From positions 7,997 to 71,996 of the forward strand of contig JAYTXU010000063.1 of assembly GCA_043742785.1 (NCBI GenBank): a stretch of DNA of 64,000 nucleotides, in the 5' to 3' direction. A program made the translations under genes and the position numbers. Positions 7,265 through 35,698 of the stretch are shown here, in pieces (the first letter of the stretch is position 1; every line of letters begins with the position of its first letter). The stretch is from Candidatus Omnitrophota bacterium. Lineage in GTDB: Bacteria; Omnitrophota; Gorgyraeia; Zapsychrales; Fredricksoniimonadaceae. A model generated the notes under the pieces. It worked only from the letters and a program-made list of their open reading frames with translations. It was not told the origin of the DNA and searched no databases.

Positions 7265-7286
7265 TCTTCCGGGCATAGGTATAAAC

Positions 7287-7757: not shown

Positions 7758-7781
7758 AATATTCTTCTTTGGAAAACTATT

Positions 7782-8204: not shown

Positions 8205-8207
8205 TTC

Positions 8208-9044: not shown

Positions 9045-10137
9045 TTATATGCAACGCGCTTACCAACTAGCCCAAAAGGGTCGAGGGTTCACCTTGCCTA
9101 ATCCTATGGTGGGAGCTGTGATTGTTAAGCAGGGAAGGATTATCGCTGAAGGCTGGCATAAGCGTTGTGGTGGCGATCATGCGGAGATTGATGCCTTAAA
9201 GAAACTAGGTGACAAAGCCAAAGGGGCTACTCTTTATGTGACGCTGGAGCCTTGTTCTCATTTTGGTCGCACAGGTCCTTGTACCGAGGCTATTATTAAG
9301 GCGGGGATCAAGAAGGTTGTTATTGGTACCCTGGATCCTAATCCTATTAATCATGGACAATCGATTAACTTATTCAAGAAGGCAGGGGTTGATGTTGAGA
9401 CAGGATTTCTTCAAGACGAGTTAATTGCTATGAATGAAGTGTTTAATAAATATATCACTAAGAAATTGCCGTTTGTTGTGGCTAAATGCGCTCAAACCAT
9501 CGATGGTAAGATTGCTACAGTGACTGGCGAGTCGAAATGGATTACTTCAGAAGAAACACGAAGGTTTGCTCATGAGAAACGCAATGAATTTGACGCAATT
9601 ATGGTGGGGATTAATACTGTTTTAAAAGATGACCCGCAATTAAACGCCACTAGCAAGATTAAGCATTTAAAAAAGATTATTGTCGACTCCACCCTTCAGA
9701 TTTCTTTGAAGGCTAAATTATTTGTTGGCGCTAAACCTTCAGATATTTTCGTAGCAACCACCTCAAAAGCATCCAAGAAGAAAATTGAGATTCTTTCTAA
9801 AGGCGGCGTTCAAGTTTTGATTTCTCCGCTAAAGGGGAAGAATGGGCATGTTGATTTGAAATGGTTAATGAAAGAATTAGCTAAGAGAGAAATTTCTTAT
9901 GTATTAATCGAGGGGGGTGGGCGATTGATCGGTCGCGCTTTGAAAGATTCTTTGGTAGATCGTATGATGATCTATATAGCCCCTAAGATTGTTGGCGATC
10001 AAAATGCGATTAGTTCCGTCGCTGGATTAGGTGTTAAGAGTATTGATAAGGCTCTTGAATTAAAAGATCTGAAGATTAAACAAATAGGTCAGGACTTCTT
10101 GATAGAGGGAGACGTTCATGTTCACAGGAATCGTTGA
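9028..10137 (+). CDS. ribD: Bifunctional diaminohydroxyphosphoribosylaminopyrimidine deaminase / 5-amino-6-(5-phosphoribosylamino)uracil reductase
   Basis: CMP/dCMP-type deaminase zinc motifs HAEIDAL and PCSHFGRTGPC; C-terminal RibD reductase domain. Confidence 0.9.
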   Translation: MKPLSNYMQRAYQLAQKGRGFTLPNPMVGAVIVKQGRIIAEGWHKRCGGDHAEIDALKKLGDKAKGATLYVTLEPCSHFGRTGPCTEAIIKAGIKKVVIGTLDPNPINHGQSINLFKKAGVDVETGFLQDELIAMNEVFNKYITKKLPFVVAKCAQTIDGKIATVTGESKWITSEETRRFAHEKRNEFDAIMVGINTVLKDDPQLNATSKIKHLKKIIVDSTLQISLKAKLFVGAKPSDIFVATTSKASKKKIEILSKGGVQVLISPLKGKNGHVDLKWLMKELAKREISYVLIEGGGRLIGRALKDSLVDRMMIYIAPKIVGDQNAISSVAGLGVKSIDKALELKDLKIKQIGQDFLIEGDVHVHRNR

Positions 10138-10702
10138 ACAATTAGGCAAGATTAAGGCAATTGAGCAAAAGAGTAATTTAATTGTTCTGAAAGTCGATGC
10201 GTTTAAATTGGCTAAGAAAATTCATGTGGCTGATAGTGTAGCCATTAACGGTGTTTGCTTAACTGTTACCCAGAAAAAGGGGAGCATTGTTTCTTTTGAT
10301 TTGATGAAAGAGACGATTGAAAAAACGTCTTTGAAAGAGGTGGGTTTAGAAAGCGAAGTCAATTTGGAATTGGCTCTCTTGGTTGACAGTCGTTTCGGTG
10401 GACATTTTGTGAGCGGCCATGTGGATGAAAAAGGTGTGATCCAGAAAATAGAAAAATCTAAAAACTGGGTGAGTATGACGATTAGTATTTCTAAAGCGAA
10501 TGCCAAATATATTGTGCCTAAAGGATCGGTAACCTTAGATGGAATAAGTTTGACCGTTGGCCATGTGGGTAAAAATAGTTTCCAAGTCTATTTAATCCCT
10601 TATACCCTGCAAGCCACCAATCTAGGTTCTAAAAAAGCTGGCGACAGCGTTAATATTGAGACGGATATTCTGGCTAAGTACATCTTAGCTGGGAAGAAAT
10701 AA
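10118..10702 (+). CDS. ribE: Riboflavin synthase (alpha subunit)
   Basis: Starts MFTGIVEQLGKI; two lumazine-binding repeats (SVAINGVCLTV / SVTLDGISLTV). Confidence 0.9.
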   Translation: MFTGIVEQLGKIKAIEQKSNLIVLKVDAFKLAKKIHVADSVAINGVCLTVTQKKGSIVSFDLMKETIEKTSLKEVGLESEVNLELALLVDSRFGGHFVSGHVDEKGVIQKIEKSKNWVSMTISISKANAKYIVPKGSVTLDGISLTVGHVGKNSFQVYLIPYTLQATNLGSKKAGDSVNIETDILAKYILAGKK

Positions 10703-10963
10703 ATTTTTTTTATATCAGTTACATGTGAATCCTTCTAACTAATAAGAAAACCTTTTACTTTTAATCCCTTACGAAATAATCGAATTAGGTGTCTAGCCTG
10801 AGGGTCGGTAAAGAAGGAAGATTCAGCCCATTTCCACTTAATTTATTTTCTTGCTAAAAGAAAGAGTGAGTAGTAGTATTGTTTGTGCTTCAGAAAATTC
10901 TATAAATTATTGTTCAGACAACTCGCAAAGGTTGTTCTTTTTTATTTCTAGGGGGATTCAAAA

Positions 10964-11923
10964 ATGGTTTATAAGAAATTTTTAATATTTGGGTTTGTTG
11001 GTTTATTTGCTGGTTGCACCTCTGTTCCTAAACAAATGAAAGTTGTTGAGCCGCCTATTTCTCAAAAGCAACAAATTGAAGCTCAACAGCTTGTTCAGCT
11101 TCCGTTGATGAAGAAGTATAAAAGAAAGATTATTATTGGACGATTTTCGAATGAAACTACCTATGGGAAAGCTTTACTTGTTGATGATAATTATGATCCT
11201 ATTGGAAAACAAGCAAGCGATATGCTTGCAACTCGTTTAATAAAATCAAACCGTTTTTTGGTATTAGAACGTCCTGATTTAAAGAAAGTCGAAGCTGAGC
11301 AAACGATAACCAAAGAAAAGGATTTAATAGGGGCTGATACGATTATATTTGGCTCTGTTACAGAATTTGGACGTTCAGTTACTGGGAAAGCTGGTTTTTT
11401 ATCTAGTACAAAATTACAAACTGCTAAAGCTAAGGTTGAGATTCGTCTTGTTGATTCAAAAACTGGCTTAGCGTTCTTCTCAACAATCGGTGCGGGTGTT
11501 GCTACCACAGAATCTGGTGAAGTTGCAGGCTTTGGTAGCGCAGCAGATTATGATGGAACTCTAAATGATAAAGTAATTGCAGCTTCAATCTCAGATCTTA
11601 TTAATAATTTAATAGTTTCTTTAGAAAATCGCCCTTGGAAAACAGATATACTTCAAATTCTAGGTGACCAGGTTTTTATAAGCGGAGGGAAGAGTCAAGG
11701 TTTGAAAGAAGGAGATATTCTTCAAGTGATGAAGAAAACAGCTACTGTGAAAAGCCAACAAAGTGGTTTCATGATTGATTTGCCTCCTGAAAAGATTGCC
11801 ACCATTAAAGTGAGTAGTTTTTTTGGTGACACTGAAACAAGTGAAGGATCAATTGCTAAAATCATTAATGGCTCTATTGATGCTGGTATACTAGAAAAAT
11901 GTTTTGTAAAAGAGGTTGAATAA
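10964..11923 (+). CDS. CsgG-family lipoprotein (curli production assembly/transport component-like)
   Basis: Lipobox LFAGC; CsgG-like core (GRFSNETTYGK..., LATRLIKSNRFLVLERPDLKKVEAEQ); SD AGGGGGAT upstream. Confidence 0.5.
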   Translation: MVYKKFLIFGFVGLFAGCTSVPKQMKVVEPPISQKQQIEAQQLVQLPLMKKYKRKIIIGRFSNETTYGKALLVDDNYDPIGKQASDMLATRLIKSNRFLVLERPDLKKVEAEQTITKEKDLIGADTIIFGSVTEFGRSVTGKAGFLSSTKLQTAKAKVEIRLVDSKTGLAFFSTIGAGVATTESGEVAGFGSAADYDGTLNDKVIAASISDLINNLIVSLENRPWKTDILQILGDQVFISGGKSQGLKEGDILQVMKKTATVKSQQSGFMIDLPPEKIATIKVSSFFGDTETSEGSIAKIINGSIDAGILEKCFVKEVE

Positions 11924-12232
11924 ATGAGAAAAATATTATTATTTTCTACGGTTGTTTCTCTTTTTGTTATTGGGTGTGCTCCACGTTACCCAACAACAGC
12001 TGTAAGTACGATTGATTCACGACCAACTTTATCATTTATAAACGCTCCAGCAGGCTCTGTTGCTTTAGTTGATGGCATAAATATGGGTGATGCAACAAAG
12101 TTTAATGGTAAACCAAAAGTTTTAGCAGTTGAACCCGGTACGCATGAGGTAACAGTAATGCAGGGAAGCGTAGTGGTTTCTAAGCAAACTGTTTTTGTTG
12201 AGAGCGAACAGAAAGTTATTAACGTCCATTAA
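11924..12232 (+). CDS. Small lipoprotein, PEGA-like beta domain
   Basis: Lipobox VIGC; region VDGINMGDATKF...LAVEPGTHEVTV resembles PEGA; ATG directly abuts upstream stop (TAAATG). Confidence 0.4.
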   Translation: MRKILLFSTVVSLFVIGCAPRYPTTAVSTIDSRPTLSFINAPAGSVALVDGINMGDATKFNGKPKVLAVEPGTHEVTVMQGSVVVSKQTVFVESEQKVINVH

Positions 12233-12245
12233 CTAAGGTTCTAGT

Positions 12246-12608
12246 ATGAATAAAAGTGTATTAAAATTATTGCCATTATTATTTTTGGTTGGTTGTGCTA
12301 CTCAAAAGTATACATGGAATGGTTATGATGATAACCTTTATGCGTATTATAAGAACCCTGCTAGTAAAGAGAAGTTCGTAGAACACTTAAAAGAAACTAT
12401 TTTAAGAGGTGAACAAAATCATAATGTTCCACCTGGGGTATATGCTGAATATGGATATATGCTTTATGAAAATCAAGATTTTCCGGGCTCAATTACTTAT
12501 TTTCAAAAAGAACATGACTTGTGGTTGGAGTCTAGACCTTTTATGGAGAAAATGATTGATAATGCACAAAAGATGTTGTCCAAAAGTCAGCCTAAGGGAT
12601 CTGTTTAA
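12246..12608 (+). CDS. DUF4810-like lipoprotein
   Basis: Lipobox LVGC; ~120 aa; sits between a CsgG-like gene and a DUF799-like gene as in the conserved cluster. Confidence 0.45.
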   Translation: MNKSVLKLLPLLFLVGCATQKYTWNGYDDNLYAYYKNPASKEKFVEHLKETILRGEQNHNVPPGVYAEYGYMLYENQDFPGSITYFQKEHDLWLESRPFMEKMIDNAQKMLSKSQPKGSV

Positions 12609-13345
12609 TGAAAAAACTGATTTTAATTGTTGGATTGGTTGTTTTTGCTTCTGGTTGCGCAAGTATACCGAAGAAAGATTATACTAAATTTTACTCAGCC
12701 GCACCTCGTTCTATTCTGGTAGTCCCTGTTGTTAATCAAAGCGTTAATGTAGATGCTCCTGCTTATTTCTTGTCTAGTATTTCTATTCCTATTGCTGAGC
12801 AAGGATATTATGTTTTTCCAGTCAATATGATCAAACGTGTGCTTGAGGATAATGGCTTATCTGATGCAGATTTGGTTCACAATGCTCCTGTGGAGAAGCT
12901 ATCATCTTTATTTAGCGCAGATACAGTCTTGTACGTAAAAATTAAACGTTGGGATGCTCGATATTTATTCTTATCTACTACGGTCACTGTAGAACTTGAA
13001 TATATTATTAAAGAAGGAAAAACTGGAGAAACTCTATGGCAGGATGATCGCATAATCCAGTATACTCCACAGACGACTGATACAGGAAATCCTATAGCAA
13101 CTTTAGTAGTCATGGCTATTACAGCTGCAGTTGAGAAGGCGGCCCCCAATTATATGCCTTTAGCTAAGCAAGCAAATGCAGTTGCTTTTACTTTTCCAGG
13201 TCCAGGGATTCCTCCAGGACCTTATTCAGGCAAAGAAAACAAACAAGTAGCGACTAAAACTGTAGTAGTTAAACCTGTGGCAACTTCAACAAAAGATACA
13301 CCATCAAATATAGCAATTCCAGCAAAGAATAATTTTAAAGGTTAA
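12608..13345 (+). CDS. DUF799/GNA1162-like lipoprotein
   Basis: Lipobox ASGC; 245 aa; start overlaps previous stop (TAATG); P/T-rich C-terminal tail. Confidence 0.45.
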   Translation: MKKLILIVGLVVFASGCASIPKKDYTKFYSAAPRSILVVPVVNQSVNVDAPAYFLSSISIPIAEQGYYVFPVNMIKRVLEDNGLSDADLVHNAPVEKLSSLFSADTVLYVKIKRWDARYLFLSTTVTVELEYIIKEGKTGETLWQDDRIIQYTPQTTDTGNPIATLVVMAITAAVEKAAPNYMPLAKQANAVAFTFPGPGIPPGPYSGKENKQVATKTVVVKPVATSTKDTPSNIAIPAKNNFKG

Positions 13346-13621
13346 TCAATTCTTGATACCCAAGCGGTGCCCATCCAAGGTGAAAAAGTTGTAAAATCTT
13401 GTATAAAGTTGTATGACGTGTGGAAAGTTTTTGCTGTGTGGAATTTGGCTTAAAATGACCGTTTGTCGACGATAAGTACCAAAAATAGCCTAATGTATCC
13501 CAGCATCTCCACCAGCCAGATTGGCACAAATTAGGCACATAATTTTTCTATCTTCTATAAGTCAGGCTGGCTAAAGAGGTTATAAAGGTAGCCTGTGGGT
13601 TCTCTTACAGCAGACCTCCAG

Positions 13622-13710
13622 AATTAGATAGTGCTATTAAAGTGCCCCATAGTATGATCTTGGATATCTCCTTGACCGCAAATCACCACCTGTCAAAATA
13701 AGGTCTGTCT
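13622..13710 (+). repeat. Direct repeat copy A (~90 bp; perfect 26-nt core TAGATAGTGCTATTAAAGTGCCCCAT at 13625-13650)
   Basis: ~75% identical overall to copy B at 14668-14754; lies in a 625-bp non-coding gap. Confidence 0.7.
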
Positions 13711-13971
13711 TCATAAGTTCAGGCTCTCTTATCTGCTGTAGTTTTGGTAAAGTCAAGTCACTGACACCCCTTTTTAAATTATAAATAACAGGACTGTTAC
13801 AAAAGCCCCGTAATGTCTATTTTGGAAAGATTTATCTCTAAAGAGGGTAGTGACTATTAAAAGCTAAAAAAAATATGCTATACTCAAATTAAGGAACTTG
13901 ATTCATAGAATTATTTGAGTTTCTTGATTCTTTGAAAAAAGATGTTCTTGTAGCAAAAGTGGTGGCGCGCT

Positions 13972-14652
13972 ATGAACAAGATATTTTTGCCCTTGGTTCT
14001 GTGCCTATTCTTTCCGGCTTTGATCTGTAAGGCCGATATGTCGGCCTTTAATGAAACGCCTACTACTCATCTCCCGCCTGGAATCTTAAATAAACACAAT
14101 GTGCAGAATGTGCAAAATCTGGATGTCATTGAGCTGGAGAAGCTTACCATTGATCATATAGAAAAAAGAAGAATTTCGTTATCTATGGAGAGTATTACGG
14201 AAGATGCTGCTTTGAAGAGTCCTATTGCTGAGGATTTTAATTCGTTATCTGTTGGCAACAAACATGTTCATCGAAGATATGATGGTTTTCTCTCTTCAGT
14301 TTCTCCAGATTACAAGATTAATAGAAATTTTCTTTCACTCACCAAGGTTCCTAATGTTAACCATAAACAGGCGATCATGTTTGTATTTCTTATGAATAAT
14401 AACAGATATGAACGCAAGAGATCCAGTAGTGATATTAATACCATCTTGAAAGATAATCCACGCACCCGCATGCATGTGTTGTGGCCAGGATCTAAGAAAA
14501 TAAATTTGGAACAGAAGATTATTGCAGATGAATATCCTGTTGATATTTCTATCGCCAATAAAGAAGATGGATATGCGCAGGGAGAATGGAATCTTGTCCT
14601 ACCTAATAAGAAACCACGCGAAGTAAGAGTTTCTCTGTTGTGGTCATTTTAA
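13972..14652 (+). CDS. Hypothetical secreted protein (226 aa)
   Basis: N-terminal signal peptide MNKIFLPLVLCLFFPALICKA; no recognisable domain. Confidence 0.5.
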   Translation: MNKIFLPLVLCLFFPALICKADMSAFNETPTTHLPPGILNKHNVQNVQNLDVIELEKLTIDHIEKRRISLSMESITEDAALKSPIAEDFNSLSVGNKHVHRRYDGFLSSVSPDYKINRNFLSLTKVPNVNHKQAIMFVFLMNNNRYERKRSSSDINTILKDNPRTRMHVLWPGSKKINLEQKIIADEYPVDISIANKEDGYAQGEWNLVLPNKKPREVRVSLLWSF

Positions 14653-14667
14653 TTCGTCTTCAAAACA

Positions 14668-14754
14668 ATTTAGATAGTGCTATTAAAGTGCCCCATCATA
14701 TAATCTTAAATATATTCTTGTTCAGGAATCGGTGTCTGCTAGAATAAGGTCCAA
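14668..14754 (+). repeat. Direct repeat copy B (26-nt core at 14671-14696), forming the 5' leader of the 14757 gene
   Basis: See copy A; ends 2 nt before the ATG at 14757. Confidence 0.7.
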
Positions 14755-14756
14755 TC

Positions 14757-15308
14757 ATGGTTCAAACAGACTACACCGATAAAATCCTCCAATATATCCA
14801 AAAGAGCGGCCAAGCGCGGGTCGCATCGATGCTCCAAGATCTTAATATTCCACGTAGAAGGGTTTTCAAGATTCTCTCTCGGCAGATTAAATCAGGGATA
14901 ATTTTTAAGGAAGGGGTGCATCCGAATATTTATTATAAGGCAAGGGTGCTTCCATCTAAAGAGCCTGCAGTCATTTCTCGAACACCCATTTCGAAGAAGG
15001 CGAAGAGCGGTTCTTATGAAACAGAGTATTTGTGTCAAGAGCTGGAAGATGCCAGAAAAGCTCAAAGGGAAATGAAGGATGAAGTGACAAGGCTTTCTCA
15101 CGAACTTTATCTAAGTCATAATGAGCTTAGCTCTAAAGAAGTAGATATTAAATATAAAGAGGCTCAGATCCATTCCAAGGAAGAACAGATCAAGCGCATG
15201 ACTGACCGGGAAGATCAACGTTATGAAGAGAACAAAAGTCTGCGCAAAGATATTCAGGATTTGCAGATCAGATTAAGGGAAGAGCAGAGGCAGACAGGGA
15301 AGAAGTAA
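14757..15308 (+). CDS. Hypothetical protein, N-terminal winged-helix-like region plus C-terminal coiled coil
   Basis: N-terminus KILQYIQKSGQARVASMLQDLNIPRRRVFKILSRQIKSG resembles a wHTH; C-terminal 90 aa K/E/Q/R heptad-rich. Confidence 0.5.
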   Translation: MVQTDYTDKILQYIQKSGQARVASMLQDLNIPRRRVFKILSRQIKSGIIFKEGVHPNIYYKARVLPSKEPAVISRTPISKKAKSGSYETEYLCQELEDARKAQREMKDEVTRLSHELYLSHNELSSKEVDIKYKEAQIHSKEEQIKRMTDREDQRYEENKSLRKDIQDLQIRLREEQRQTGKK

Positions 15309-15333
15309 TTTTTATAAACTGAAAAGGAAACCT

Positions 15334-16185
15334 ATGAATACAAAGACTTTTTCTAAGAAAGAAGCTATTACCCGCGGAATACAGATGACTAAAAAGTATT
15401 TTGGGGTGATTTTAATTGTCATAGGTATTTATATTGCAATTGGGGTGAGCAATGGGCAATTACAAAGTGGGGCAGGATTAGATCGTATTAATAAAAGGGA
15501 TATTAAAACGCTTTATAAAGATTCTGCTGCTGTTGATGCGTTTAACCAATATCTTCAAACATCCGGATATATCAACAAATTCGGCAAAGTACAGGATAAG
15601 TTAGAGAAAATCGAAAAACCTTCTGATTTAGTTCTTCCATTGGAACTAGATGGGGATCGATATAAGATTTTTAGATTTCTACAAGCATATAAATACCATT
15701 TACCTTTTCCAAAAGCATTTTATTACGTATTACTTTTTGGTTTTGGTATTATTAATATGTTACTACAAATAGGTGCGACAAAAATGACCTTGATGGTCAA
15801 TCGTGATGAAGCACCGAATGTTTTTGAGATCTTTTCAAATGGTTCGCTTTTGATTACATATATTTTGTCGAGCATTTGTTATTCTTTAGCTGTTATAGGA
15901 GGAATGATTCTTTTGATTGTCCCTGGCATTATATTAAGTATTGCGCTTGGAATGAACATGTTCTTTATCGTTGATCAAAAGATGGGCCCCATTGAATCGC
16001 TGAAAGCGAGCCGTGCTCTCACAAAAGGTGTTCGGTGGCAATTGTTTTGTTTCGGAGGAGCTCTTCTTCTATTTAATTTGGCAGGTCTTTTATGTCTAGT
16101 GATAGGGTTACTTTTCACGATCCCTGTTTCTTGTGTTGCAACGGCATACGTCTATGATCATCTACGTAATCAAGTGGCTACTTAA
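15334..16185 (+). CDS. Hypothetical polytopic membrane protein (283 aa)
   Basis: SD AAAAGGAAA; about 6 hydrophobic helices. Confidence 0.5.
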   Translation: MNTKTFSKKEAITRGIQMTKKYFGVILIVIGIYIAIGVSNGQLQSGAGLDRINKRDIKTLYKDSAAVDAFNQYLQTSGYINKFGKVQDKLEKIEKPSDLVLPLELDGDRYKIFRFLQAYKYHLPFPKAFYYVLLFGFGIINMLLQIGATKMTLMVNRDEAPNVFEIFSNGSLLITYILSSICYSLAVIGGMILLIVPGIILSIALGMNMFFIVDQKMGPIESLKASRALTKGVRWQLFCFGGALLLFNLAGLLCLVIGLLFTIPVSCVATAYVYDHLRNQVAT

Positions 16186-16196: not shown

Positions 16197-16418
16197 ATGT
16201 CTAAACCACAACAATTGATTGAATGGAGTTATTTAGGGGCGAATTACAGTGTGTATATTAAGCATTTCACTGATGATGAGGGGAAGAGGGGAATGACCAT
16301 GATTTTTGAAGACACTACTAATGACAAAGTTACAGAAATGACTGTTCCTACTCGCAAGTTTCCCGAATTTCTAAGGGCTGTTAATGGGGGGGACGAACCT
16401 TATAGAGGATTATTTTAG
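16197..16418 (+). CDS. Small hypothetical protein (73 aa); an inactivated paralog lies at 19115-19261
   Basis: Soluble, ends ...VNGGDEPYRGLF; the degraded copy supports it as a genuine gene family. Confidence 0.5.
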   Translation: MSKPQQLIEWSYLGANYSVYIKHFTDDEGKRGMTMIFEDTTNDKVTEMTVPTRKFPEFLRAVNGGDEPYRGLF

Positions 16419-16464: not shown

Positions 16465-16698
16465 ATGAGCGACCAAAACCAAAATAAAGAAGATAATTTT
16501 CTGCGAACCCTCCTCATATCGATTATTTGTATTCCTCTTATTATTTGGTTACTTTATAATGGTTATCAAAAAAGTCTGCAATCTTCTACTAAATCTATTG
16601 CTTGTGAAAAAAGATGTACTGATCAAGGCCATGCAGGTTATGAATTTAAATGGCCTATGTTCTCCGGTCCTAAATGCACCTGCATAGACATGAAATAA
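16465..16698 (+). CDS. Small membrane-anchored Cys-rich protein (77 aa)
   Basis: One TM helix (LLISIICIPLIIWLLY) then a 4-Cys tail CEKRC...GPKCTC. Confidence 0.4.
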   Translation: MSDQNQNKEDNFLRTLLISIICIPLIIWLLYNGYQKSLQSSTKSIACEKRCTDQGHAGYEFKWPMFSGPKCTCIDMK

Positions 16699-17867
16699 AT
16701 CTAAAAATTAAAGAAAAGTATAAAGTGAAGAAATCTATTTTTCTTATTCCGTTATTAATTCCTTTGCTTATTTTTGGTTTTAACAAAACTAACTTTAAGC
16801 CCTTATGGAATGATGAAATAAACACCCAAACAAAAACTTTAAATCAATCGTACAGTAATATTCTGCTTAGAAACCATGTCTTTGACGACAGTTTAGCTCC
16901 TCTTTTTTATATTCAGCAGAAGATTTTGTGTGATCTTTTTCGTTACCAAACACCTCAAGAATGGTTGAAGGGGGATTGGTCCTATAGAGATCGTTATTCC
17001 AATGTTTTCTTAAGGATTCTTCCTGTTTTTTGGATGTCGTTATCTTTTTTGTTGTTGTTTATTTATTTCTCTAATCGATTTAATCTCTTTATTGGATTCT
17101 TAAGTTTATTTATAGCTTTCTCCACTCACATTCTTCTAGCTTATTGGGCTGAGGCAAGGCCCTATGGCTTATGGGTGTTCTTTACGGTTGTTCAGCTGCT
17201 TCTTTTTATAGAATTAATTGAGGCTCCGGTTGTAGGGGCCAAGAAATGGGTTTGGCTTTCTATTATTCATATTGCTTTAAGCCTAACTTGCATCTTAAGT
17301 TTCTTTCAGATTACGATTGTTTCTATGATCCTTTTCTTATTTAAAGAACGTCGTTGGAATAGATATATATTTCTGTTAGCGGTTCCATTAATTTTTATTT
17401 ATTTCTACAAACCTTTTCTTCATAGTGTTACTTTTTTTTGTCAGGTTCGAGATATTTTTTATAGCATATTACCTAAAGAACGTATTAATATTTTTCAACT
17501 TTATCCTTTGTTGTTGGGATTGTATTTCTTGCAATCTAAGAAATTGATCTCTCCATTATTTCTGAATAGCACTCTGTTAAAGATTGCCCCTTTTTTTATA
17601 GCGTTATTTCTTATGGTATTTGCCGTTTTTATATTTTTAAGTTATTTATGGGGTCACGCTACAGGAGGAGTTCAGGTTGTTACGCCAAGGCATGTTATAT
17701 TTCTAGCGCCTCTTGAAGTTATTGCGGAGACTTATTTAATAGGCATTCTTTGGGAGAGTTTTAAACATCTTTTTTGGATGCGATTGTTGATTCTGGCTAT
17801 TATTACTTTTTTTTATTTTCCACCTTTTAATATATTTTCTTTTGGTTTTCTAGCTTTTGCCTCCTAA
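16674..17867 (+). CDS. Polytopic membrane protein, probable GT-C fold glycosyltransferase (PMT/ArnT-like); alternative GTG start at 16725
   Basis: ~11 TM helices; acidic DD motif in first extracytoplasmic loop (NHVFDDSLAPL); segment NVFLRILPVFWMSLSFLLLF resembles RIPALIFGMGGILFLW of the 56661 GT39-like protein. Confidence 0.4.
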   Translation: MHLHRHEINLKIKEKYKVKKSIFLIPLLIPLLIFGFNKTNFKPLWNDEINTQTKTLNQSYSNILLRNHVFDDSLAPLFYIQQKILCDLFRYQTPQEWLKGDWSYRDRYSNVFLRILPVFWMSLSFLLLFIYFSNRFNLFIGFLSLFIAFSTHILLAYWAEARPYGLWVFFTVVQLLLFIELIEAPVVGAKKWVWLSIIHIALSLTCILSFFQITIVSMILFLFKERRWNRYIFLLAVPLIFIYFYKPFLHSVTFFCQVRDIFYSILPKERINIFQLYPLLLGLYFLQSKKLISPLFLNSTLLKIAPFFIALFLMVFAVFIFLSYLWGHATGGVQVVTPRHVIFLAPLEVIAETYLIGILWESFKHLFWMRLLILAIITFFYFPPFNIFSFGFLAFAS

Positions 17868-17935
17868 TATAGAGGATAGGTGTTTTTATATTTCTGTTGA
17901 TGGTGCTGTGAGGTCTAGCCGCTTTAAAAGTGCGG

Positions 17936-17964
17936 TTGACAAACATCTTTTAAGTATATAAAGT
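17936..17964 (+). promoter_or_regulatory. Promoter-like element: TTGACA (17936-17941) then a TATAAA / TATATAAAGT -10-like region (17957-17966)
   Basis: Direct read; 35-60 nt upstream of the protease ATG (17999) with SD AAGGGGA. Confidence 0.45.
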
Positions 17965-17998
17965 ACAAATTTAGTTATTCAAGATAAGGGGACAATAT

Positions 17999-18937
17999 AT
18001 GAAGAAGGTAATCTTTTATTTCTTAGTTTTATTTATCAGTTTTCTTTCACCTTCTTTAGTAAAAGCAGTAGAAGAAGTTAAAACTATGAATGTAGCGAGT
18101 ACGGCCGAACAATTATTCTTTGTTACTGTAAGATTGGAATGCTCGCGTGTTGGTAAAGATGGGGCGATTGTAGGAGATGTTGGTACAGGTTTTATAGTAT
18201 CTTATAAGTGGCAGAATAAAGAAGGACTCTTTTTAGTTACAAATAAACATGTTTTAAAAGATGTAGAAAAAATTAAATTCTTTTTTATTCAAAGTGATGG
18301 AAAAAAGCCGATTTTAGGAAAGATACAACCTGTTGAAATGAATAATGTGAGATCTTTATGGTATGGACATCCTAACGACAAAGTAGACGTTGGAATAATC
18401 CCAATAAGTGAACTTCTCGATCAGGCTCAAAAAAAGAATTTGCAGTTATTTATCAGGTCTTTTAATAAAGATTTTTTACCAACGCCACAGCAAGCAGAAG
18501 ATTTAGATGCGGTTGAGGAGATTATGTTTGTAGGTTATCCAAGTGCAATTTACGATAAAGTGAATTATTTGCCAATACTTAGACGGGGGATTACTGCTAC
18601 ACCTCTGAATGTAGATTATGAAGGTTTGCCACAATTCTTAATTGATGCAACAGTATTTCCTGGTTCAAGTGGGAGCCCTGTCTTTTTGATGAACCGTGGT
18701 AGCTATTCTACTAAAGAAGGTGGTTTGGTTTCTGGTTCTCGCTTCTTTTTACTGGGATTAATTTCAGAGGTTTATGTGTTTAATCAAACTAATGTAGGGG
18801 GATTTACTGATATACCTTCAACTATCAAACCAGTTGTTGGAACATCTCAAATGATGGGACTCGGTAAAGTAATAAAATCATCAGCTATTTTTGAAACGAT
18901 AGAAACTTTCTTAAGGTTAAATGGTGAAATAAAATAA
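17999..18937 (+). CDS. Secreted trypsin-like (S1 family) serine peptidase
   Basis: Signal peptide; catalytic His context LVTNKHVL, Ser motif FPGSSGSPVFLM (GDSGGP-like), Asp in between. Confidence 0.7.
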   Translation: MKKVIFYFLVLFISFLSPSLVKAVEEVKTMNVASTAEQLFFVTVRLECSRVGKDGAIVGDVGTGFIVSYKWQNKEGLFLVTNKHVLKDVEKIKFFFIQSDGKKPILGKIQPVEMNNVRSLWYGHPNDKVDVGIIPISELLDQAQKKNLQLFIRSFNKDFLPTPQQAEDLDAVEEIMFVGYPSAIYDKVNYLPILRRGITATPLNVDYEGLPQFLIDATVFPGSSGSPVFLMNRGSYSTKEGGLVSGSRFFLLGLISEVYVFNQTNVGGFTDIPSTIKPVVGTSQMMGLGKVIKSSAIFETIETFLRLNGEIK

Positions 18938-18954
18938 TTTAGCAGGATTTTTTT

Positions 18955-18990
18955 GCCAGCTAGTGATTTGTTCATTGGCTGGTTTTTTTA
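18955..18990 (+). terminator. Possible rho-independent terminator (5-bp stem CCAGC/GCTGG, long loop, T7 tract)
   Basis: 18956-18960 pairs with 18978-18982, followed by TTTTTTT at 18983-18989; weak stem. Confidence 0.3.
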
Positions 18991-19028
18991 TCTTATGATT
19001 GATTGGTACTGGCAAATTGTCCTCTTAA

Positions 19029-19091
19029 ATTAAGAAGAAGATTGGTGAAAGTGTCAATATTGAAACTGATATTTTGGCGAAGCATATTTAA
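19029..19091 (+). pseudogene. Remnant of a second ribE 3' end (encodes ...KKIGESVNIETDILAKHI*)
   Basis: ~80% nt identity and near-identical translation to the ribE C-terminus at 10640-10702 (GDSVNIETDILAKYI); in-frame stop immediately upstream at 19026-19028. Confidence 0.55.
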
Positions 19092-19114
19092 AATAATTAA
19101 AAGTTAGAAACGTT

Positions 19115-19261
19115 ATGTCTAAACCACAATAACTCATTAAATGGAATTATTTAGGTTCGAACAATGAAAAAGTCACCGAAATGACTATTCCCTCCCGCAA
19201 ATTCTCCGAATTTATAAAGGTCGTCAATGGCGGCAGTGAAGCCTACCGCGGTTTATTTTAG
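19115..19261 (+). pseudogene. Inactivated paralog of the 16197-16418 small gene (CAA->TAA nonsense at codon 6 plus 75-nt in-frame internal deletion)
   Basis: MSKPQ*LIKWNYLGSNNEKVTEMTIPSRKFSEFIKVVNGGSEAYRGLF* vs MSKPQQLIEWSYLGANYS...KVTEMTVPTRKFPEFLRAVNGGDEPYRGLF*. Confidence 0.6.
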
Positions 19262-19438
19262 ATTTTCTTTCGTACTATATTTATAACCTATTGGTAAATA
19301 TTAATTTACAGCACATGAGAAAGCGCTTTCCAAAAATTCCTAAAATGCCCTTGTTTTTGAGTATATATAGTACATACTTTAAATAACAAGAAGATTTATG
19401 GTATTAAGTAGTTAACCCCAGTAAAGAAAGACTACTGT

Positions 19439-22400
19439 ATGACAAGAGGGAAGATATATAAAAAATCTATCGTTTGGTTAGTCTTAGTTGCATTCTTATT
19501 AAATACATTAATAGGAGCGCAGCCTGTACAAGCTGATGTTCCTTTCCTGCCTGCCCCTGGTCAATTAGTTCCATTAACAGCATCATTTTCTTCACCCATG
19601 ATTTGTGGCCTTAAATTCTTTAAGGACAATCCTTTTAAATTTAATTTTGTCATGACTCAAGGAGATCAAGCCTCTGGTGAAAACTCTTTTAATAGAAAAG
19701 TTTTCTTGAAAGAAGAAGCCAGTAGGCTTGTTAAATATTTCTTAGCTTCTTTAGCAATTCCTGAGAAAGACATGTGGGTTAACTTATCACCCTATGATTC
19801 TAATCGTATTATTCCACAAGAATTTGGAATTACGGAAATGGGAAAAGATATGTTAGCTCAAGATTATTTATTAAAGCAGGTAGCTTCTTCTGTGATGTAT
19901 CCGGAAGGAAGTGTGGGCAAGGAATTTTGGAGCAAGATTTACAGGGAAGCTTATAAACGTTTTGGAACAACTAATATTCCCGTTGCCGCCTTTAACAAGG
20001 TTTGGATTATTCCGGGTCAAGCAACTGTCTATGAGGATGCTATTGATAATACAGCGGTGATCACAGAGAGTAAGCTTAAGGTCATGCTTGAAGAAGACTA
20101 TCTGGCGCTTAGTAAATCAACCATTAAGGATCATATAGAAAAAAGCTCAGATGCTAATAGACAATTATCTAATGAATTAATTCGTGAGATAATTCTTCCT
20201 TTGATTGAGAAAGAGGTTAATGAGGGGAAGAATTTTGCAACATTGAGGCAAGTTTATAACTCGTTAATTTTGGCATTTTGGTTTAAAAATAAATTAAAGG
20301 AAGGGTTATTAGCAAAAGGATATTTTGGTCAGAAGAAAGTCAATGGCGTTGATGTAAATGATAAGAATATTGACCAGGAGATCTATAAGCAGTATTTAAA
20401 ATCTTATAAAAAAGGCGTTTATAACTATATCAAAGAGGAATTAACTCCTACCAATGAAGTGGTCCCAAGAAAATATTTTTCTGGAGGGGTTATCTTTGGA
20501 GATTATATCGAAAAAAGTTTTGCAATGATTTCTGGAAAAGAAGCTGCAAAGGCTGCTAGTGCCGTCTTACAGAATGGGGTTGTTACCTTTGAGGCGGGGG
20601 TTGAAGCAATTGTAGGAGATAAAACTAGATTAGAGTCATCAACTATTGGAGGGTTAAGAGAAAGTGGGCTAGTTCAAGATGGCGATACTGTTATAAGAAT
20701 TAAACTTAATGGAGTACAGAAATATAACGAAAAAGTAAGAAAATCTCTGATAGAAAGAATTATCGTTCTTAAGAAGGTATTTGGTTTGTATGTTAGACCA
20801 TTTAAAAGAATACTGCCTGCAATCACAGTGGGAGTTTTTCTTTTGGCGGCTGCTAATTCAGCTTCTGCTAAGGGCTCTGAAGATTTAATGCAGCACGGTT
20901 CTAAGAAAGCAGAAATCAAACAGGTGGTCGCAAGCTCTATCGATATTCAAATACAAAAGCTTAGTGAGAAAATAGGTGCTGATCAAAATGCAGTGGACAA
21001 TATGAGTGCTAAAGGCGGAACCTTAATGATGAATTTTGATAAGGTCCAAAAGCTCAAAGCACAAATCAAGATAGAAAAAGAACAATTGAAAGAGATTCAG
21101 GGAGCAAAGCCTAAGGGTTCTGTTGCTCCTCAAGAGATTTTACCAGTAAAAAATGTGCAGCCAGTTTCAGTAGATACTCATATGGGGTCTGTATCCATAG
21201 CTACCCCAAGCTCTGTAGATGTTCCTGGCTCGGTAGTTCCAACAGTAGTGGTTCCTGTGGATCATGATTCCAATTTAAATGTTCAACCTCAAAGAACTGC
21301 GCCAACAACTACAGTTGCAACGATTACACCGACTTCCACAGGCGATACTCCTGGACTTATTAAAGCACCTGGTAATCAAATTCAGCCCAAGGTTCTTTCA
21401 GGGGATGCTCTTGATCACAATAATCTTTTACCTGATCAGGGAGCGGCACCTACTATTGATACTCAGCACGGCGCAGCCGCAGGGCCTGGAGCGCCGCCAC
21501 CGGATCAACTAGATCAAGGGCTTAATTTAAATACTCAAGTTTCAGGAGCGCCGCCAGCAGCTGTTCAAGTCGCAACAGTTACATCGGGGATTTCAACAGG
21601 GAGTACTAATATGTATTCATCCCAATTGGATGAAGAAGCAGCGGTTAAGCAAGCTAATCTTTTAGAAGAACAAGTATTGTTAAGCCAGCTTCAGAAATCT
21701 TCTGCAGATCAGGATGCTTTAAAGTTAAAAATAGCTGAAGATATGCAGTTGATTCAAAATTATCATCTAGCACTTCCTAATTACAAACCAGTTCCTTTGC
21801 CATACCAAAAAGCGGGGATGACGCCGCCCATTGCTTCCTTTACTCCGGATAATGTCAGCATTGCCTTGCTGGATTATAAGATTAATCAGACATTAAGAAC
21901 AATCAAGAAGCCTATTAAGAATAATCCCTTTGCTCATGGTGCTTTATCGATGAATAATAATGCGCCTTTTGCAAGCGTGCCGGTTGTATCGGTTGGGGTT
22001 GGAACAAGTTTTAGCATTGTCCCTGATGTGCCTTTTGCTGGTTTGATTAATTTGACCCAAATAGTTGGAGGGCTTCCTCAACTTGGTCAGCAAGGCGTTA
22101 TGAGTCAGGTGTTGGGGCCTGCAGTGGCTGTTGATATTCTAGCTAATTTAAGAAATTATGTGGTAATGCATCCGACCAAGGGACAGGATGTTCGTTATGA
22201 TGCACGTATGACTCCATTTAAAGGGGTTGTTGAATCACTAACAGTGCATGTGACTCCAGCTGTTTCTTTTGACCAAGAAGGGCATCGAGTTGAAAAGAAT
22301 CTTTATCGTGTAGGGATTGTTAAAACCTTAGGTGCCGTAGCAGGAAAGGTGGATTCCCTTTTAGGAGATAAAGGACTCTTTGGGCATAGCAGCGATCACT

Positions 22401-25400
22401 TTATTTTCCAAAATCTTGGTTACCAGATAAAGGTGGATGATTATCACCAGGCGTTTACCTATCAGGCGGCTGTTAATCAGGATACCAATACAAGCTATAT
22501 CAATGCCTACAATATCGAAGATTCAACGACCCGCTACAGAGAAAATACTCATCACGGTTGGGATCTTGTTGATTCGTCTACTCCGTTAGATTCTCACTTG
22601 GATTATTATAGCGCCACTGTTCATGGTTTTATTCTACATGCCGATTCAACAACTGGAACAATGACAGGCCAGGGAGATGTTTTTACCTCTTCAACCTTTA
22701 TTACCGATGCTTTTGCTAAGCAAATAGCCCAGCAAGACGGGCAGACTATTGTCGGAAGATCTTATCTGAGTACTAATTCAGTTTTAGTAGAACCTATTTC
22801 TTCTTTGAAGGATCTTAATTTAGAAAAACAGTTATCAAAGGGTGTGGATAAGAATGGTCATCTTATTTGGGGAGTATTAAGAAATCATTTGGGACATATT
22901 GTTAAATTAATTATTGATCCGCGTGAACTTAACGATACAAGTTCTTTGACTGATGATAGCGGGAACTCAGTTAGATTTATTCCTGGCAAAGCTTATAAAG
23001 CCTCTTCAACCACGGGAGAGATTGGTAGTACTATTCGGGATTATACCATTGATGAGTTTAGGATTGTTGGTGAAGTTAAAGGGATGTTCAAGAAAAATAC
23101 GGTTGCAGATAAATACGGCCATTATGATCTATCTGAAAGACCGCAATTACCAGAATTACCTTCAGAGCTGAAATCTTTAGTTTCTGGAAACGGCTTGATT
23201 TTAGAATCCTCTGTGTCATTAAAAGCCATTTATCAGACAGCAAGGAATTATTATGGGGTTGTGTATTTTGCAGATGGAAGAGTGCCCGCTGTCCTTACAG
23301 GTTTAAAGAATGTTAAAACGATTGGATCCCTGGATGAAAAAAACGGGGTGACCCGATTGCCTAACGGATTATATACTCTTTCAAGATTTAAAAAGAATTT
23401 GGATGGCAATGCCCTTGTTCTTTTAGATGGTAAGAAGCAGGTTATAGCCGTTGTGGATGCATCTGATAAATTAAAACAGGAACGCATTAAAAATCTTCAT
23501 GGAGAAAATAAACGTATTGATGATCACAAGGTTACTTTAACAACTTTAAAGGATGGAGGGATTGAAGCAGAAGACCACAGAGTGCTTGATCCTGAGAGCG
23601 GCAAGCCTCAGTTTACAATTTTTACGAAAGGCAATACGTTTACACCAGAGCAGACAGCATTTAATGCAGCAAACCCTCAACAGATTCATTTAGAAAGAGA
23701 ATTAGCGGATTTGGCTATTAAAGGCCAGGCCATCACCATTCCTGTTGAAGGATCTAATAGACAAAGATGGATTATTCTAGAAAAAGCACCTACTTCTCAA
23801 TTAAAAAGATTAGAACAATCAAGTCAACAGGTGGCACCTGTTCGAAATATAAAGGTAGAAACCTTAACAGGGCCGGATGGAAAGGTTTTTCATGGGGTGA
23901 CCATTGATACGGAAATGTTTGGTGCTGATGATATTCAAAAGTTAAACAGTCTTGGCGCGACTGCCGTTCGTACTTATTATCCAATTTCTAAAAAACTTGC
24001 TGTTCTGCTTGCCACTCAAACTCAAGTCAAAACGATTATTGTAGGCATTCCCTTAAATTCAAAAGCTTATAATCCGGAGAATTTGTCCAATTTTTGGGGA
24101 GATACTGTGGGGGATCCAGATGAAAGAGTTTCTTTAGAAAATAGCAGCAAGTATATATCCTATCTTAAGCAGCTGGCAGCTACTCTTGATGGCAATGCAA
24201 AAATTGTTGTTGATTTAGGTAATGAACTGAATTTACATCCGGATTGGATTGGAGTTACGAATAATGGGTCAGACCTAGGCAGATTTTTTAGAAAGGTAGA
24301 CAAGCATGCTACGGATATAAAAGCAGTATTAGGAGATAGTGTTACAACGTCCTTCACCTTGGGAGATAATCCAATAGATTTTGTAACAGCATTGACAAAT
24401 GCACCTAATGTTCAATATTGGGGGGTTAACTCTTATCGGGGTATAGATGGTTTAGAAAATGATTGGATGAAGGCGACTAAAGAAGCAGGTGTTTTTAGGC
24501 CATTCTATGTGGCTGAAACAGGAAATAATTCTAATGCAGGAGAAGCAGTGCAGGCGGAAGCAGATGTTCACGCTTGGAAAACAGCGGAAGGCAAGATGGG
24601 TGTCAGTGTTCTATTAATGACTCTTCAAGATAATCCTAAAAAGATGGCCAATAATAAACAGGAAAACTTTGGTTTGTATGACCAATATGGGAAGCCAAAA
24701 GCAGGTGTCAGAAAGATTACCGAAGCTTGGGGAGAAGCAGCGACTTCGACTACAGCACCAATTTTGTTCGATGATACTCTAACCGGGGTTAATGAACACT
24801 ATGCCCTTGTGCGTCTTCGTTCAAATCATCCTGCCGGAACTACTGCAGAAGAGGTTGTTAAACAATTAAAAACTGAACGCGTTCGCGTTAGTGATCTAGA
24901 TCGATTAGCTCCAGCTCTTGGAAAATTAGGCGTTGAAATATTGAAGATTGATTCTCAAGGCAATACAGTTGGACGATATGTCAAGATGTTTGGGGATGGT
25001 TATCAGTTGTGGGAAAATGTTTCAATTGAAGCCAATATGAATAAATATTTTCAGATTAATCGCAATGATGGGAAAGGTTCTGAATATGTTTCATTAGATG
25101 ATTTAAAGTCTCCTTCAACTCAGGAAGCTATTCGTCAGGTTGCTGACGAAGTTACCATGATGGATATGAATCAGCATGTGATGGCACGGGTATTTTTAAA
25201 TAAAAATTTTAATGGCAGCCGTATTGAAGTCTTACAGGACAATCATACATCTTCCATTTTTGAATTGGCTTCATTTAGTCCAACAGATTTATCTGGTCCT
25301 GTTGCTAAAACAGTTTCTATTAATCCTAAAGATTCCAAGGATGGCTTCTTGCATGTCATCACCACTGATTTACGCCAAGTTAATCAAGGCGTGCAGGTGG

Positions 25401-28400
25401 AAGATGTTTACAAGCCGGTTACCGGGGGGAAACCAGTTTTGCTTTACAGTGACCGATTCTTACAAAACAATCGCATTTATTTTAAAGATGGCCATGAGTA
25501 TTATTCCGTTTTAATTGATGCTTCCCATAAGGATGGGCAAACCGTGACGATTGACGGACAGACGACAGAGAATGTGACAGGAATCTTTGATTTTAATAAG
25601 GACTCCAATAGCGGGTATCACGTCAATCTTCGTAATCTGGATAAGAATGGCGGTTTTGCTCCTATTCGTTTTACAAAATTCAAGGATGGACAGATTAATG
25701 TTGATCAAACAGGATTTGTTAAGATTCGACAAGGAATGGATCGCAAAGCTATTTTAGATAATGTTGTTAGATCGTCTGTTCTTAATATGACAGACGTATA
25801 CAGATATAGACCAGATGGACAAATTGATACAAGAGAAGTTAGTTTTTTAAATAATGGACAATGGCAATTAAATTGGACTTTAAAAGGAGCTGATATTGCT
25901 GTTCAACCTGTCCTGGTTAGTCAATTATCTAGCAATCAAGTGATTGCAGAGGCTTTTGCTAAATATAAGATTGATAAAGATACCATCTTAATTGAAACCA
26001 TCAAAACAGATACCGATGGTGTTGTCAGTAAGGATTATCGTATCTTAGGAGATATCTTAGAGAAGAAAATCATTTCTGTGATCGAGCAGGGTGGGGGAGT
26101 CATCAAGACTATTGTGGGGTTAAATTTTGACAACACCACAGGCGAGCAGATACTGTCCTATACCTTAAGTTCTGATGGGCAGGTTCAATCTTTAAGTAGA
26201 ACGGTTCCCAATGAATTATCCTATCAGCAGCTTCTTCCTCAAGGAGTCGAGACAACCTATGCACAGTTTATGGAGAAACATTTAAATGTTCAGGGAGCTA
26301 ATTATTGGAATGAGTTGGAACAAAGAGGTGTCTCAAGAAGTTTTGTACCAGTGGTGGTTGAAGAAATTCCTTTTCTGGTTCAAACAGATAAACCTGGTGC
26401 TAATAGTTTTAAATCTATTGAACCCAAGATACGTCCTCTCGTTGAAGCTTATACAAAGGCCAGTGCTCAAGACCGTCCTGCTCTATTAAAACAAATTTCA
26501 GATACCGTTCGCCAGTATCATCAAGAGAGTAATACTGCGCATTATACGCAAGAGCAAGGGCAGCCGACCTATCATTATTTATCACCTCCTAATGATAGTC
26601 GAGGACGTGATTATATTACCAAGACAAGCGATGGGGATATTTCGCTCAATATTTGGCCACTTGAAGGTAAGGGAAATTTTCCAGCTAATATTTTGCCGGC
26701 TAGTATTGTTGTTAATCAGTCGACTGGCGAATTGCAGAGAACAATGGTTTTTGATCATCATGAAAAGCTACAGTTTCAGAATTTCCAAAATGAGCCCTAT
26801 GAACTGGGCGTGAATGTTTATAAGGTTTCGGATGATTTAAGTTTAAAGGAGGCTACATTTACGAGTTTAGGAGATCCCATTTCTAAAACCACTCTTTATC
26901 AGCGTAATCGTGTTGCTAATGGAATATTTGGTGTACAGACAAGAGGGGAAGAAACAATTGCTTTTGATCCGTTATTCCCGTACTCGCTTCCTTTGGCTGG
27001 GACCTTAGATGAAGATGGTCGTTTGACTAAGGCAACTTTGCATTTGGAATTTAGTGTTGAGAATGGGCATCAGAAAATTGTGGAAACATCCTTGGTCAAT
27101 GAGCCAACAGCTCCAGGGGATTTTAGAGTTAAAACGCAGACCATTGTGGATGGTAAGCCAATTTCTGGGACTCTGCATGAAGAAGGAACACTTTTGGGTT
27201 ATAGGAAAAGCATGGAGGCTAATTGGAAAGTATTTGCCGTTTATCCTGCTTTAATCTTAGGGTTAATTATCAGCGGAGATTTACTTAAGAAAATTAGGTT
27301 TAATAGAATTAAAAAGGCATTGGCTGAGGAGGCTACTAATGCAGCCTTAGAAGAAACATCAGAGCCTCCTAAAGAAAGAGAAATTGTTTATCCTTCTTGG
27401 CAGGAGTATGGATTTAGTAAAGGTGCTTTGGCCGTTGCTGCTAGAAGATACGAAGGAACAATTGTTCCCATGTTAAAGAAAGAATCAATAGAGGATGTTT
27501 TAAAAGAATATTTCCGTGGTTATCAAATATGGCGTAAACAGGTCATGGGTATTGAAGAGCCATTTATCCCCACTATTGAAGATTTATGGGTGATGTTTTT
27601 AAGAGATGCGGATAATGATATTTTGAATGCAGATGTGCCAGACGGCCTTAATTATTTGATGCATAAAGCTGTGGAAGCTAGAAAGATTAACCCAGTGGCT
27701 GCAGATATAGGGGGTTTTATAAGAAAGGAATACACGCGCTGGCATAATATTATTGAAATTCAGCAAACAACCTTTCAGGGTTTATCAGGGGGGAAGATGA
27801 AAAACGTGGTCCCCTATGATTATTATTTTACCGTCGAAGATCTTAATGAAATGTTTCGTACTAGGAAGAATGTTGAATGGTACGATGATTTAGGGTATTC
27901 CTTGGATCGTAAAGCAGATAGAAGAAGCTCTATCTACAATGATTTTATAGCCAGTTTGAGGGAAAAGGTTAAGGCTGCTAAAGCAGGAATTGAAGCCATG
28001 GCTGATAGTGTGGGTGGCAATGTATTTAGAATGAAGAGAAAGGTGGCAGATGTTGCAGAGTATCAGGAGTATGTTCAATTTTTTACTAGAGTTCAAAAAG
28101 GTGAGTATACCGTATCAGATAATTTTACCTCCACAGAAATATCTGCAGAACAAGCTAATCTTTTAATTAATAACAAACCATTTATTAGAAAAACATTTGC
28201 GGAATCAGGATCATGGGTTGGGAAAATGCCTTTGCCGTTGCGTATGATCAAACCATTAGCCCAGTTTATCCGAAATAGTTATAACCAGTTAACCTATCCA
28301 ATTATATTAACTTCGACCGTGGGAGCTTATGTGGCAGCTTATGACGGCATCATAGGCTGGGGGACTGCTACCCTTGCGGCAGCTATTAGTCTTGTTGTTA

Positions 28401-31402: not shown

Positions 31403-31423
31403 TTTTAAACGACGGAGGATTAC

Positions 31424-31705: not shown

Positions 31706-31733
31706 AATATTCATATCTAGATATTGAGTTTAT

Positions 31734-31996: not shown

Positions 31997-32014
31997 TTTT
32001 ATTTCTACAAACTT

Positions 32015-32284: not shown

Positions 32285-32287
32285 TCT

Positions 32288-35692: not shown

Positions 35693-35698
35693 GTTTTT

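Follow-up and report, generated by a model that had tools for sequence, protein, structure and literature searches.

A ribE remnant and a small-gene pseudogene upstream of a giant gene as a probable scar of recombination between Omnitrophota lineages

Gene content between the rib operon and tRNA-Pro

The window (the 64,000-nt stretch of DNA analyzed here) belongs to an AT-rich Omnitrophota genome (~37% GC), and all relatives retrieved for comparison were Omnitrophota MAGs. The closest of these are ~78-80% identical at the nucleotide level and lie on short contigs; no parental or near-identical sister genome was found among the relatives retrieved. All genes described here lie on the forward strand. 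The resident riboflavin synthase gene ribE (10118-10702; 194 aa), identified from the open reading frame list, its translation and PF00677 homologues, is intact and forms the 3' end of a conserved rib operon (ribBA, ribH, nusB, PHP, ribD, ribE; 6062-10702), which is collinear through ribE with three relatives (L012, L129 and L132). It is followed by a group of genes assigned by Pfam (block X; 10964-16185). The left part of this block comprises csgG, a 102-aa gene, a DUF4810 gene and a GNA1162-like gene (10964-13345), and the right part, which begins after a 626-nt gap, comprises g13972, g14757 (HTH/coiled coil) and a gene for a DUF975 membrane protein (15334-16185). Block X was present downstream of ribE in none of the seven relatives sampled.

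Two features of block X were recorded in their own right. A direct repeat of 82 nt (76% identity; 13624-13705 and 14670-14751) has an identical 27-nt core (TTAGATAGTGCTATTAAAGTGCCCCAT), with one copy in the 626-nt non-coding gap (13346-13971) and the other just upstream of g14757, and may represent either a small repeat element or a regulatory region that was duplicated. The csgG/DUF4810/GNA1162-like lipoprotein operon (10964-13345) has the lowest GC3 in the window (0.22-0.26). The same operon is found in L007 (2697-4965; 55-71% aa identity), ~5 kb upstream of the L007 small gene, a proximity that may represent residual linkage or coincidence.

Between block X and a second gene block lies a small intact gene (16197-16418; 73 aa), the product of which belongs to a family confined to Omnitrophota and without a Pfam match. 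Homologues fall into 21 clusters at 70-88% identity (P0001-P0021; loci L003-L128), and 115 loci were collected in total, 49 from species-representative genomes and 66 from metagenomes. Identity among the proteins of more than 110 Omnitrophota loci is 60-88%, yet the gene occurs in almost every possible gene neighborhood. An AlphaFold 2 model (pLDDT 83) has four strands and a helix (beta-beta-beta-beta-alpha), for which a structure search against the PDB returned no significant match; the best hit was a Pur-alpha-like unit, so that the predicted fold resembles Pur-alpha/PC4-like nucleic-acid binders weakly (TM 0.5, not significant). The second block (block Y; 16465-18990, defined by Pfam and a terminator scan) consists of g16465 (77 aa), g16674 (a 397-aa multi-pass membrane protein) and a trypsin-like peptidase gene (17999-18937) with its intrinsic terminator (18955-18990).

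The far end of the region is occupied by a giant gene (19439-31402; 3987 aa) with an N-terminal domain of ~330 aa and a C-terminal FKS-like glucan-synthase domain, residues 3203-3820 matching eukaryote-type 1,3-beta-glucan synthase (FKS; PF02364, E = 1e-39). The first ~330 residues form a domain without a Pfam match that is common to thousands of Omnitrophota proteins (2907 matches at E ≤ 1e-20), which are 450-1400 aa long and vary widely in their C-terminal enzyme domains. Upstream of the giant gene, alignment defined a conserved leader (19318-19438; 79% identity to L063 and 66.5% to L061/L062) with a perfect palindrome, GAAAGCGCTTTC, at 19319-19330 and a TATATATA..TACTTTAAATAA box. Leaders of this N-domain family were located in the window (19319-19385), L063 (947-1010), L061/L062 (9868-9930), L132 (~10660-10730) and L059 (~350-415). 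The palindrome varies among them (GAAAACGTTTTC in L132 and an imperfect, GAAAACGTTTC-like form in L059) and is followed after ~40 nt by TATATATA..TACTTTA(A/G). The leader is probably the operator and promoter of a family-wide regulator. An additional palindrome match in L010 was unrelated to the small gene and was discarded.

To the right of the giant gene, a boundary shared with L019 (31790-31996) comprises a promoter-like element, ATTGACGGATATTAGGGCTGATGTTAGAATA, at 31790-31820 and tRNA-Pro(cgg) at 31923-31996. The element is sigma-70-like (TTGACG, 17 nt, TAGAAT) and lies ~100 nt upstream of the tRNA. An Rfam scan of the window returned only two tRNAs. Overall, the window presents the order ribE, block X, small gene, block Y and terminator, and then a truncated ribE tail (ribE'), a pseudogene of the small gene (Ψsmall), the leader, the giant gene and tRNA-Pro.

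The truncated ribE tail and the small-gene pseudogene

The first-pass annotation had described a second copy of the ribE C-terminus and of the small gene in front of the giant gene, and both copies were found above chance in tblastn searches of the window. RibE matched ribE' with 83% identity over 18 aa (E = 3.7e-4), and the small protein matched Ψsmall with E = 2e-17. Delimited by tblastn, blastn and codon alignment, ribE' (19032-19091) is a 5'-truncated tail of 19 codons plus a stop. Its frame opens at ATT 19029, immediately after an in-frame TAA (19026-19028), and reads stop, Ile, KKKIGESVNIETDILAKHI, stop, with KKKIGESVNIETDILAKHI encoded by 19032-19088 and the terminal TAA at 19089-19091. 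The in-register partner within resident ribE is 10628-10687 (SKKAGDSVNIETDILAKYI plus L) and not 10640-10702, as had been proposed from inspection of the sequence, and ribE' ends in TAA at a position where relatives have Leu. The previously reported nucleotide identity of ~80% applies to a 40-nt core (19043-19082; 80% by blastn, E = 5e-5); over the full register, identity to resident ribE is 39/57 nt (68%). Similarly, the protein conservation described as near-perfect is good (15/19 aa for ribE and about 34/48 for the small gene) but falls short of that description.

Only the 19 C-terminal codons of ribE are recognizable in ribE', and these constitute the ribE evidence considered below. They retain the C-terminal RibE motif KK.GD.VNIETDILAKY(I/L), which reads KKIGESVNIETDILAKHI in ribE', with D to E and Y to H replacements at positions that are constant in the 45 related RibE C-termini inspected. 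Full-length RibE proteins have ~190-200 aa and both lumazine-binding repeats (PF00677, two Lum_binding domains), neither of which applies to ribE'. By its alignment, ribE' is a fragment of a RibE family member and not a gene. Local alignment detected no ribE similarity upstream of 19030 better than that of shuffled sequence, and the same was true of the 41-nt junction sequence that separates the terminator from the ribE-homologous stretch (18991-19031).

After a spacer of 23 nt, one less than previously counted, Ψsmall (19115-19261; tblastn and codon alignment) begins with an ATG at 19115 instead of 19116. It is identical to the intact gene (16197-16418) at 113/147 nt (76.9%). The two lesions that had been read from the sequence were both confirmed, as codon 6 is TAA (19130-19132) where the intact gene has CAA, and codons 17-41 (75 nt) have been lost in frame at junction 19161/19162, which removes the invariant core. 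In addition, E9K and A61V affect positions that are invariant in 16 intact homologues. Intact genes of the family have an uninterrupted open reading frame of 70-73 codons with the invariant core YSVYIKHF.D..G.RGMTMIFED, which Ψsmall lacks, and its remaining N- and C-terminal parts have 70-80% nucleotide identity to more than 80 family members. Taken together, these alignments identify Ψsmall as a pseudogene of the Omnitrophota 73-aa small-protein family. Beyond the coding sequence of both pieces, neither the region upstream of 19030, nor the spacer, nor the sequence past the stop showed homology above that of shuffled sequence. The 56 nt between Ψsmall and the leader (19262-19317), compared by alignment and blastn, had no counterpart in L063 or L059, whose leaders begin right after the small-gene stop.

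An artificial origin of this arrangement was considered since the window derives from a MAG contig and similar samples contain related lineages side by side, so that two co-occurring strains could have been merged during assembly. The ribE copies are, however, 68-80% identical and offer no long exact match at which an assembler could jump, and Ψsmall has both a nonsense codon and a deletion. Furthermore, a separate Logan assembly (L001; SRR22198267, 10,048 nt) spans the peptidase, ribE', Ψsmall and the start of the giant gene at 100% identity. With the junction recovered independently and no long exact repeat available, a chimeric assembly is extremely unlikely.

The mode of divergence was informative about the history of both pieces. 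Between ribE' and resident ribE (NG86), 11.5 synonymous differences were counted over 11.5 sites and 6.5 non-synonymous differences over 45.5 sites (pS 1.0, pN 0.14). For the 47 codons shared by the small gene and Ψsmall, pS was 0.61 and pN 0.134 (dN/dS about 0.12), and both pieces combined gave pS 0.72 and pN 0.137. Local duplication of the ribE end and small gene, whether tandem or segmental, followed by decay of both pieces and later insertion of blocks X and Y, would produce exactly the topology seen here, namely a full gene, its downstream gene, a 5'-truncated copy and the downstream gene again. However, a ribE tail is non-functional once duplicated, so neutral divergence would be expected of it, in conflict with a pN of 0.14 at a pS of 0.72-1.0. 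Local duplicates with one copy neutral from the start were simulated at four divergence levels (400 runs each), and at every level 0/400 runs were as low in pN as observed, the simulated minimum being 0.15-0.45. Both pieces were therefore part of working genes for most of their divergence. In addition, the non-coding flanks are unalignable while the coding parts are conserved, as is the case for old orthologues, and a local duplication is accordingly highly improbable. The earlier proposal that divergence is mostly synonymous, as left by a functional orthologue and not by a local duplicate, was thus borne out.

The best reading of these comparisons is that ribE' and Ψsmall would have originated as working genes in another lineage. 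Ψsmall keeps family-consensus states (IPSRKF, SEAYRGLF) where the resident small gene is derived, and its nucleotide identity to orthologues (79.6% for L063, 76.2% for L019) is comparable to the 76.9% shared with the resident copy; L063 is marginally its nearest relative, with differences that are within noise. For ribE', all clade members score 39-46/57 identical nucleotides, which gives no discriminating signal as to the closest allele. The pN of Ψsmall against relatives is 0.11-0.15, compared with about 0.09 among the intact genes themselves, and the replacements at residues otherwise invariant in the families point to neutral decay of ~5% after inactivation. The recombination event considered below would therefore not be very recent.

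Gene order in related Omnitrophota

Several relatives preserve parts of the region. L012 is collinear with window positions 6062-10702 and continues with a response-regulator gene and then the small gene. In L019, the small gene is followed by tRNA-Pro(cgg), acylphosphatase (acyP) and ligA onward, collinear with window positions 31923-43003, and no counterpart of the giant cassette (19262-31789) separates the small gene from tRNA-Pro. The promoter-like element is shared between both sequences (window/L019 consensus ATTGACGGATATTAGGGCyGATGyTAGAATA) and starts 23 nt past the small-gene stop in L019 (10246-10276); by this alignment, the element at 31790-31820 marks the exact right end of the giant-gene cassette relative to L019. 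The 514-nt contig L059 contains a ribE end (DILAKYILAQKGK followed by the stop), 1 nt, an intact small gene (88% aa identity to the resident), a leader of the same type and then an open reading frame with a signal peptide of the large-protein family. In L063, an unrelated membrane protein precedes an intact small gene (88% aa identity), which is followed by an orthologous giant-gene leader (79% nucleotide identity over 163 nt to window positions 19318-19478) and start, MAKIKVLKNSIVW. From L012, L019, L059 and L063 we infer a backbone order of rib operon, small gene, (giant cassette), tRNA-Pro, acyP and ligA. The ribE'-Ψsmall pair, as aligned here, reproduces the compact order seen in L059, and the window thus holds an intact ribE and, downstream of it, a 5'-truncated and diverged ribE 3' end followed by the gene that follows ribE in L059.

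The interval from the rib operon to tRNA-Pro (10703-31789) is hypervariable when compared with L012, L019, L059, L060, L129, L130, L131 and L132. The sequence downstream of ribE differs in every genome sampled, and both flanks are collinear over 5-10 kb. ribE is followed by a response regulator in L012, a secreted protein in L060, a TPM protein and then a gene of at least 2636 aa in L129, a TPR protein in L131, a gene of at least 3589 aa directly in L132, and the small gene in L059. Such variation fits repeated exchange anchored in the conserved rib operon.

An ancient paralogy within this genome would likewise give a low dN/dS if a second complete ribE and small gene had long been functional and were truncated and inactivated only recently. 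At least one Omnitrophota MAG (HK-STAS-OMNI-2) does have two small-gene copies (L046 and L048). Against this, two ribE genes at the rib locus were found in no relative examined, the fragment pair matches the single-copy arrangement of L059, and long-term retention of two riboflavin synthases is unsupported here, which makes paralogy improbable.

The first-pass annotation had instead proposed that the giant-gene locus entered the genome with donor flanks (the ribE tail and small gene) and that the small protein is a functional partner of the giant protein. This horizontal acquisition would account for fragments directly upstream of the giant gene and for the absence of cassette 19262-31789 between the small gene and tRNA-Pro in L019. 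The order ribE, small gene and giant gene that it predicted does occur elsewhere, with a giant-type gene in L059, and L063 has the small gene followed by an orthologous giant gene. Composition gave no foreign signal in the giant gene when the proposed GC comparison was made, as its GC3 of 0.304 (0.29-0.34 along its whole length) equals that of backbone genes (0.313 ± 0.047). GC3 in blocks X and Y is heterogeneous (low in the csgG operon and peptidase gene, high in g14757) and within the range of some backbone genes, and GC3 composition is not decisive as to the polarity of recombination.

The position of the giant gene also argues against its recent arrival. L059, L129 and L132 each have, no more than 1.5 kb from ribE, a large gene that shares the N-terminal domain and leader type of the giant gene, compared with a background density of three large N-domain genes in 1.18 Mb of small-gene loci. 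The proximity of such genes to the rib operon is therefore conserved synteny and not chance, and the position of the giant gene is old in this clade and looks ancestral. A partnership with the small protein was not upheld either. About 120 small-gene loci have other neighbors and no giant gene, and the giant orthologues of L061 and L062 (the two best matches) follow gltBD and a TPR gene, with neither ribE nor the small gene upstream. ribE itself lies upstream of the small gene in only L012 and L059 among the 115 loci scanned. Adjacency of the small and giant genes was limited to L059 and L063 plus the dead copy here, and is thus not a conserved co-occurrence. Moreover, the giant gene has its own conserved leader, and the small-gene copy that stands beside it in the window is the inactivated one. 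Acquisition of the giant gene together with these flanks is consequently unlikely.

Probable one-sided recombination and the origin of the remnants

The ribE'-Ψsmall pair is probably a non-functional scar left where two related Omnitrophota lineages recombined. This reading draws on the homology of both pieces, their signature of purifying selection, the synteny of relatives and the absence of mobile-element genes. A Pfam scan detected no integrase or transposase domain in the nine proteins of blocks X and Y, the giant protein or g31424, and covered all of blocks X and Y but the ribE-side non-coding gaps. Likewise, a search of the window for a tRNA-derived direct or att-like repeat gave no significant match to tRNA-Pro. 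An integrase- or transposase-mediated island at the tRNA gene was not supported by these scans (no recombinase, no tRNA 3'-end repeat). Separately, an exact 15-nt match, TTTATTTCTACAAAC, occurs at 17398-17412 (inside g16674) and 31998-32012 (just after tRNA-Pro); as a candidate att repeat it was rejected, being AT-rich with E = 0.006 for a short query, and was judged a chance match.

The mechanism, as read from the anatomy of the locus, would involve two parental lineages that differ in gene order downstream of the rib operon. Parent 1 would have carried ribE, small gene, leader, giant gene and tRNA-Pro in the compact order that is still seen in relatives, and parent 2 the order ribE, block X, small gene and block Y. 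In a one-sided event (homology-facilitated illegitimate recombination), one end would cross over in homologous sequence and the other would be joined illegitimately, just past the peptidase terminator and inside the last ~20 codons (~60 nt) of a ribE. This joint would lie within 18991-19031 or at about 19029-19032. The product would contain a complete ribE along with a truncated ribE tail, and two copies of the small gene. The copy beside the giant gene would be redundant and would then decay, acquiring a nonsense codon, a slippage-type deletion of 75 nt and a small number of replacements.

The structure is symmetrical, and opposite polarities of this event fit it equally well. There is an approximately even chance that a short donor fragment entered (ribE tail, small gene and leader, perhaps with the giant-gene 5' end), anchored in the leader/giant-gene region of a recipient that already had blocks X and Y, which would have added ~0.3 kb of non-homologous DNA. 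Conversely, it is a plausible, if lesser, possibility that the 8.4-kb left block (10.6-19.0 kb; donor ribE end, block X, small gene and block Y) came in, anchored in the rib operon of a compact-order recipient, and shifted the recipient's own ribE tail and small gene to a downstream position. In that case, the 8.4-kb non-homologous insert would be larger than the inserts known from transformation experiments. Both polarities require the order ribE, block X, small gene and block Y, which was not seen among the sampled relatives.

Homology-facilitated illegitimate recombination is described, in the accounts drawn on here, for Acinetobacter, Pseudomonas stutzeri and Streptococcus pneumoniae (PMC5361080; PMC3240628). 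The present locus resembles it in having a seamless functional gene on the anchored side and an abrupt in-gene joint on the other, in incoming DNA that would stem from a related but diverged genome, and in having no recombinase genes or att sites. It differs in that the event would be reconstructed from the resulting sequence. One-sided recombination was also proposed by Kirchberger et al. (2017) for displaced 3' ends and orphan downstream genes at T6SS/Rhs loci (PMC5361080). As in the C-terminal displacement of Rhs/CDI/T6SS effector-immunity modules described there, a complete conserved gene has a 5'-truncated copy of its own 3' end some way downstream, and, as in their orphan arrays, this copy is followed by its usual small gene and both copies have diverged as strain orthologues do. 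Unlike those systems, ribE encodes a housekeeping enzyme instead of a polymorphic toxin, the displaced small gene is inactivated and has not been kept as an immunity gene, and there is one scar and no array. No toxin or immunity signature was found, and the small protein has no significant structural match. The scar also shares features with ordinary pseudogenes and remnants at genomic islands (lack of function, decay by a nonsense codon and a short-repeat deletion, and a border of variable content). In contrast to ordinary island-flank remnants, its pieces would be xenologous or allelic copies and not decayed residents, and they preserve the gene order of another lineage.

In a broader and rather doubtful extension, giant-gene cassettes would be exchanged repeatedly in this Omnitrophota clade at the interval between the rib operon and tRNA-Pro. 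The palindromic leader and ~330-aa N-terminal domain, or the rib operon, could then serve as the homologous anchor, and giant-gene bodies would be swapped between lineages much like Rhs/CDI C-termini. If this were the case, ribE'-Ψsmall would provide the first direct trace of this process.

For annotation, 19029-19261 is a gene remnant plus a pseudogene and should not be called as genes. The scar is of a known kind, with no present function and no new mechanism, in a phylum where such evidence is rare. It would set the ancestral order around one giant gene as rib operon, small gene, giant gene and tRNA-Pro. Overall, the probable scar would be sequence-level evidence that uncultivated Omnitrophota swap chromosomal DNA between diverged lineages, here with a synonymous divergence above 1, without the involvement of mobile-element genes.
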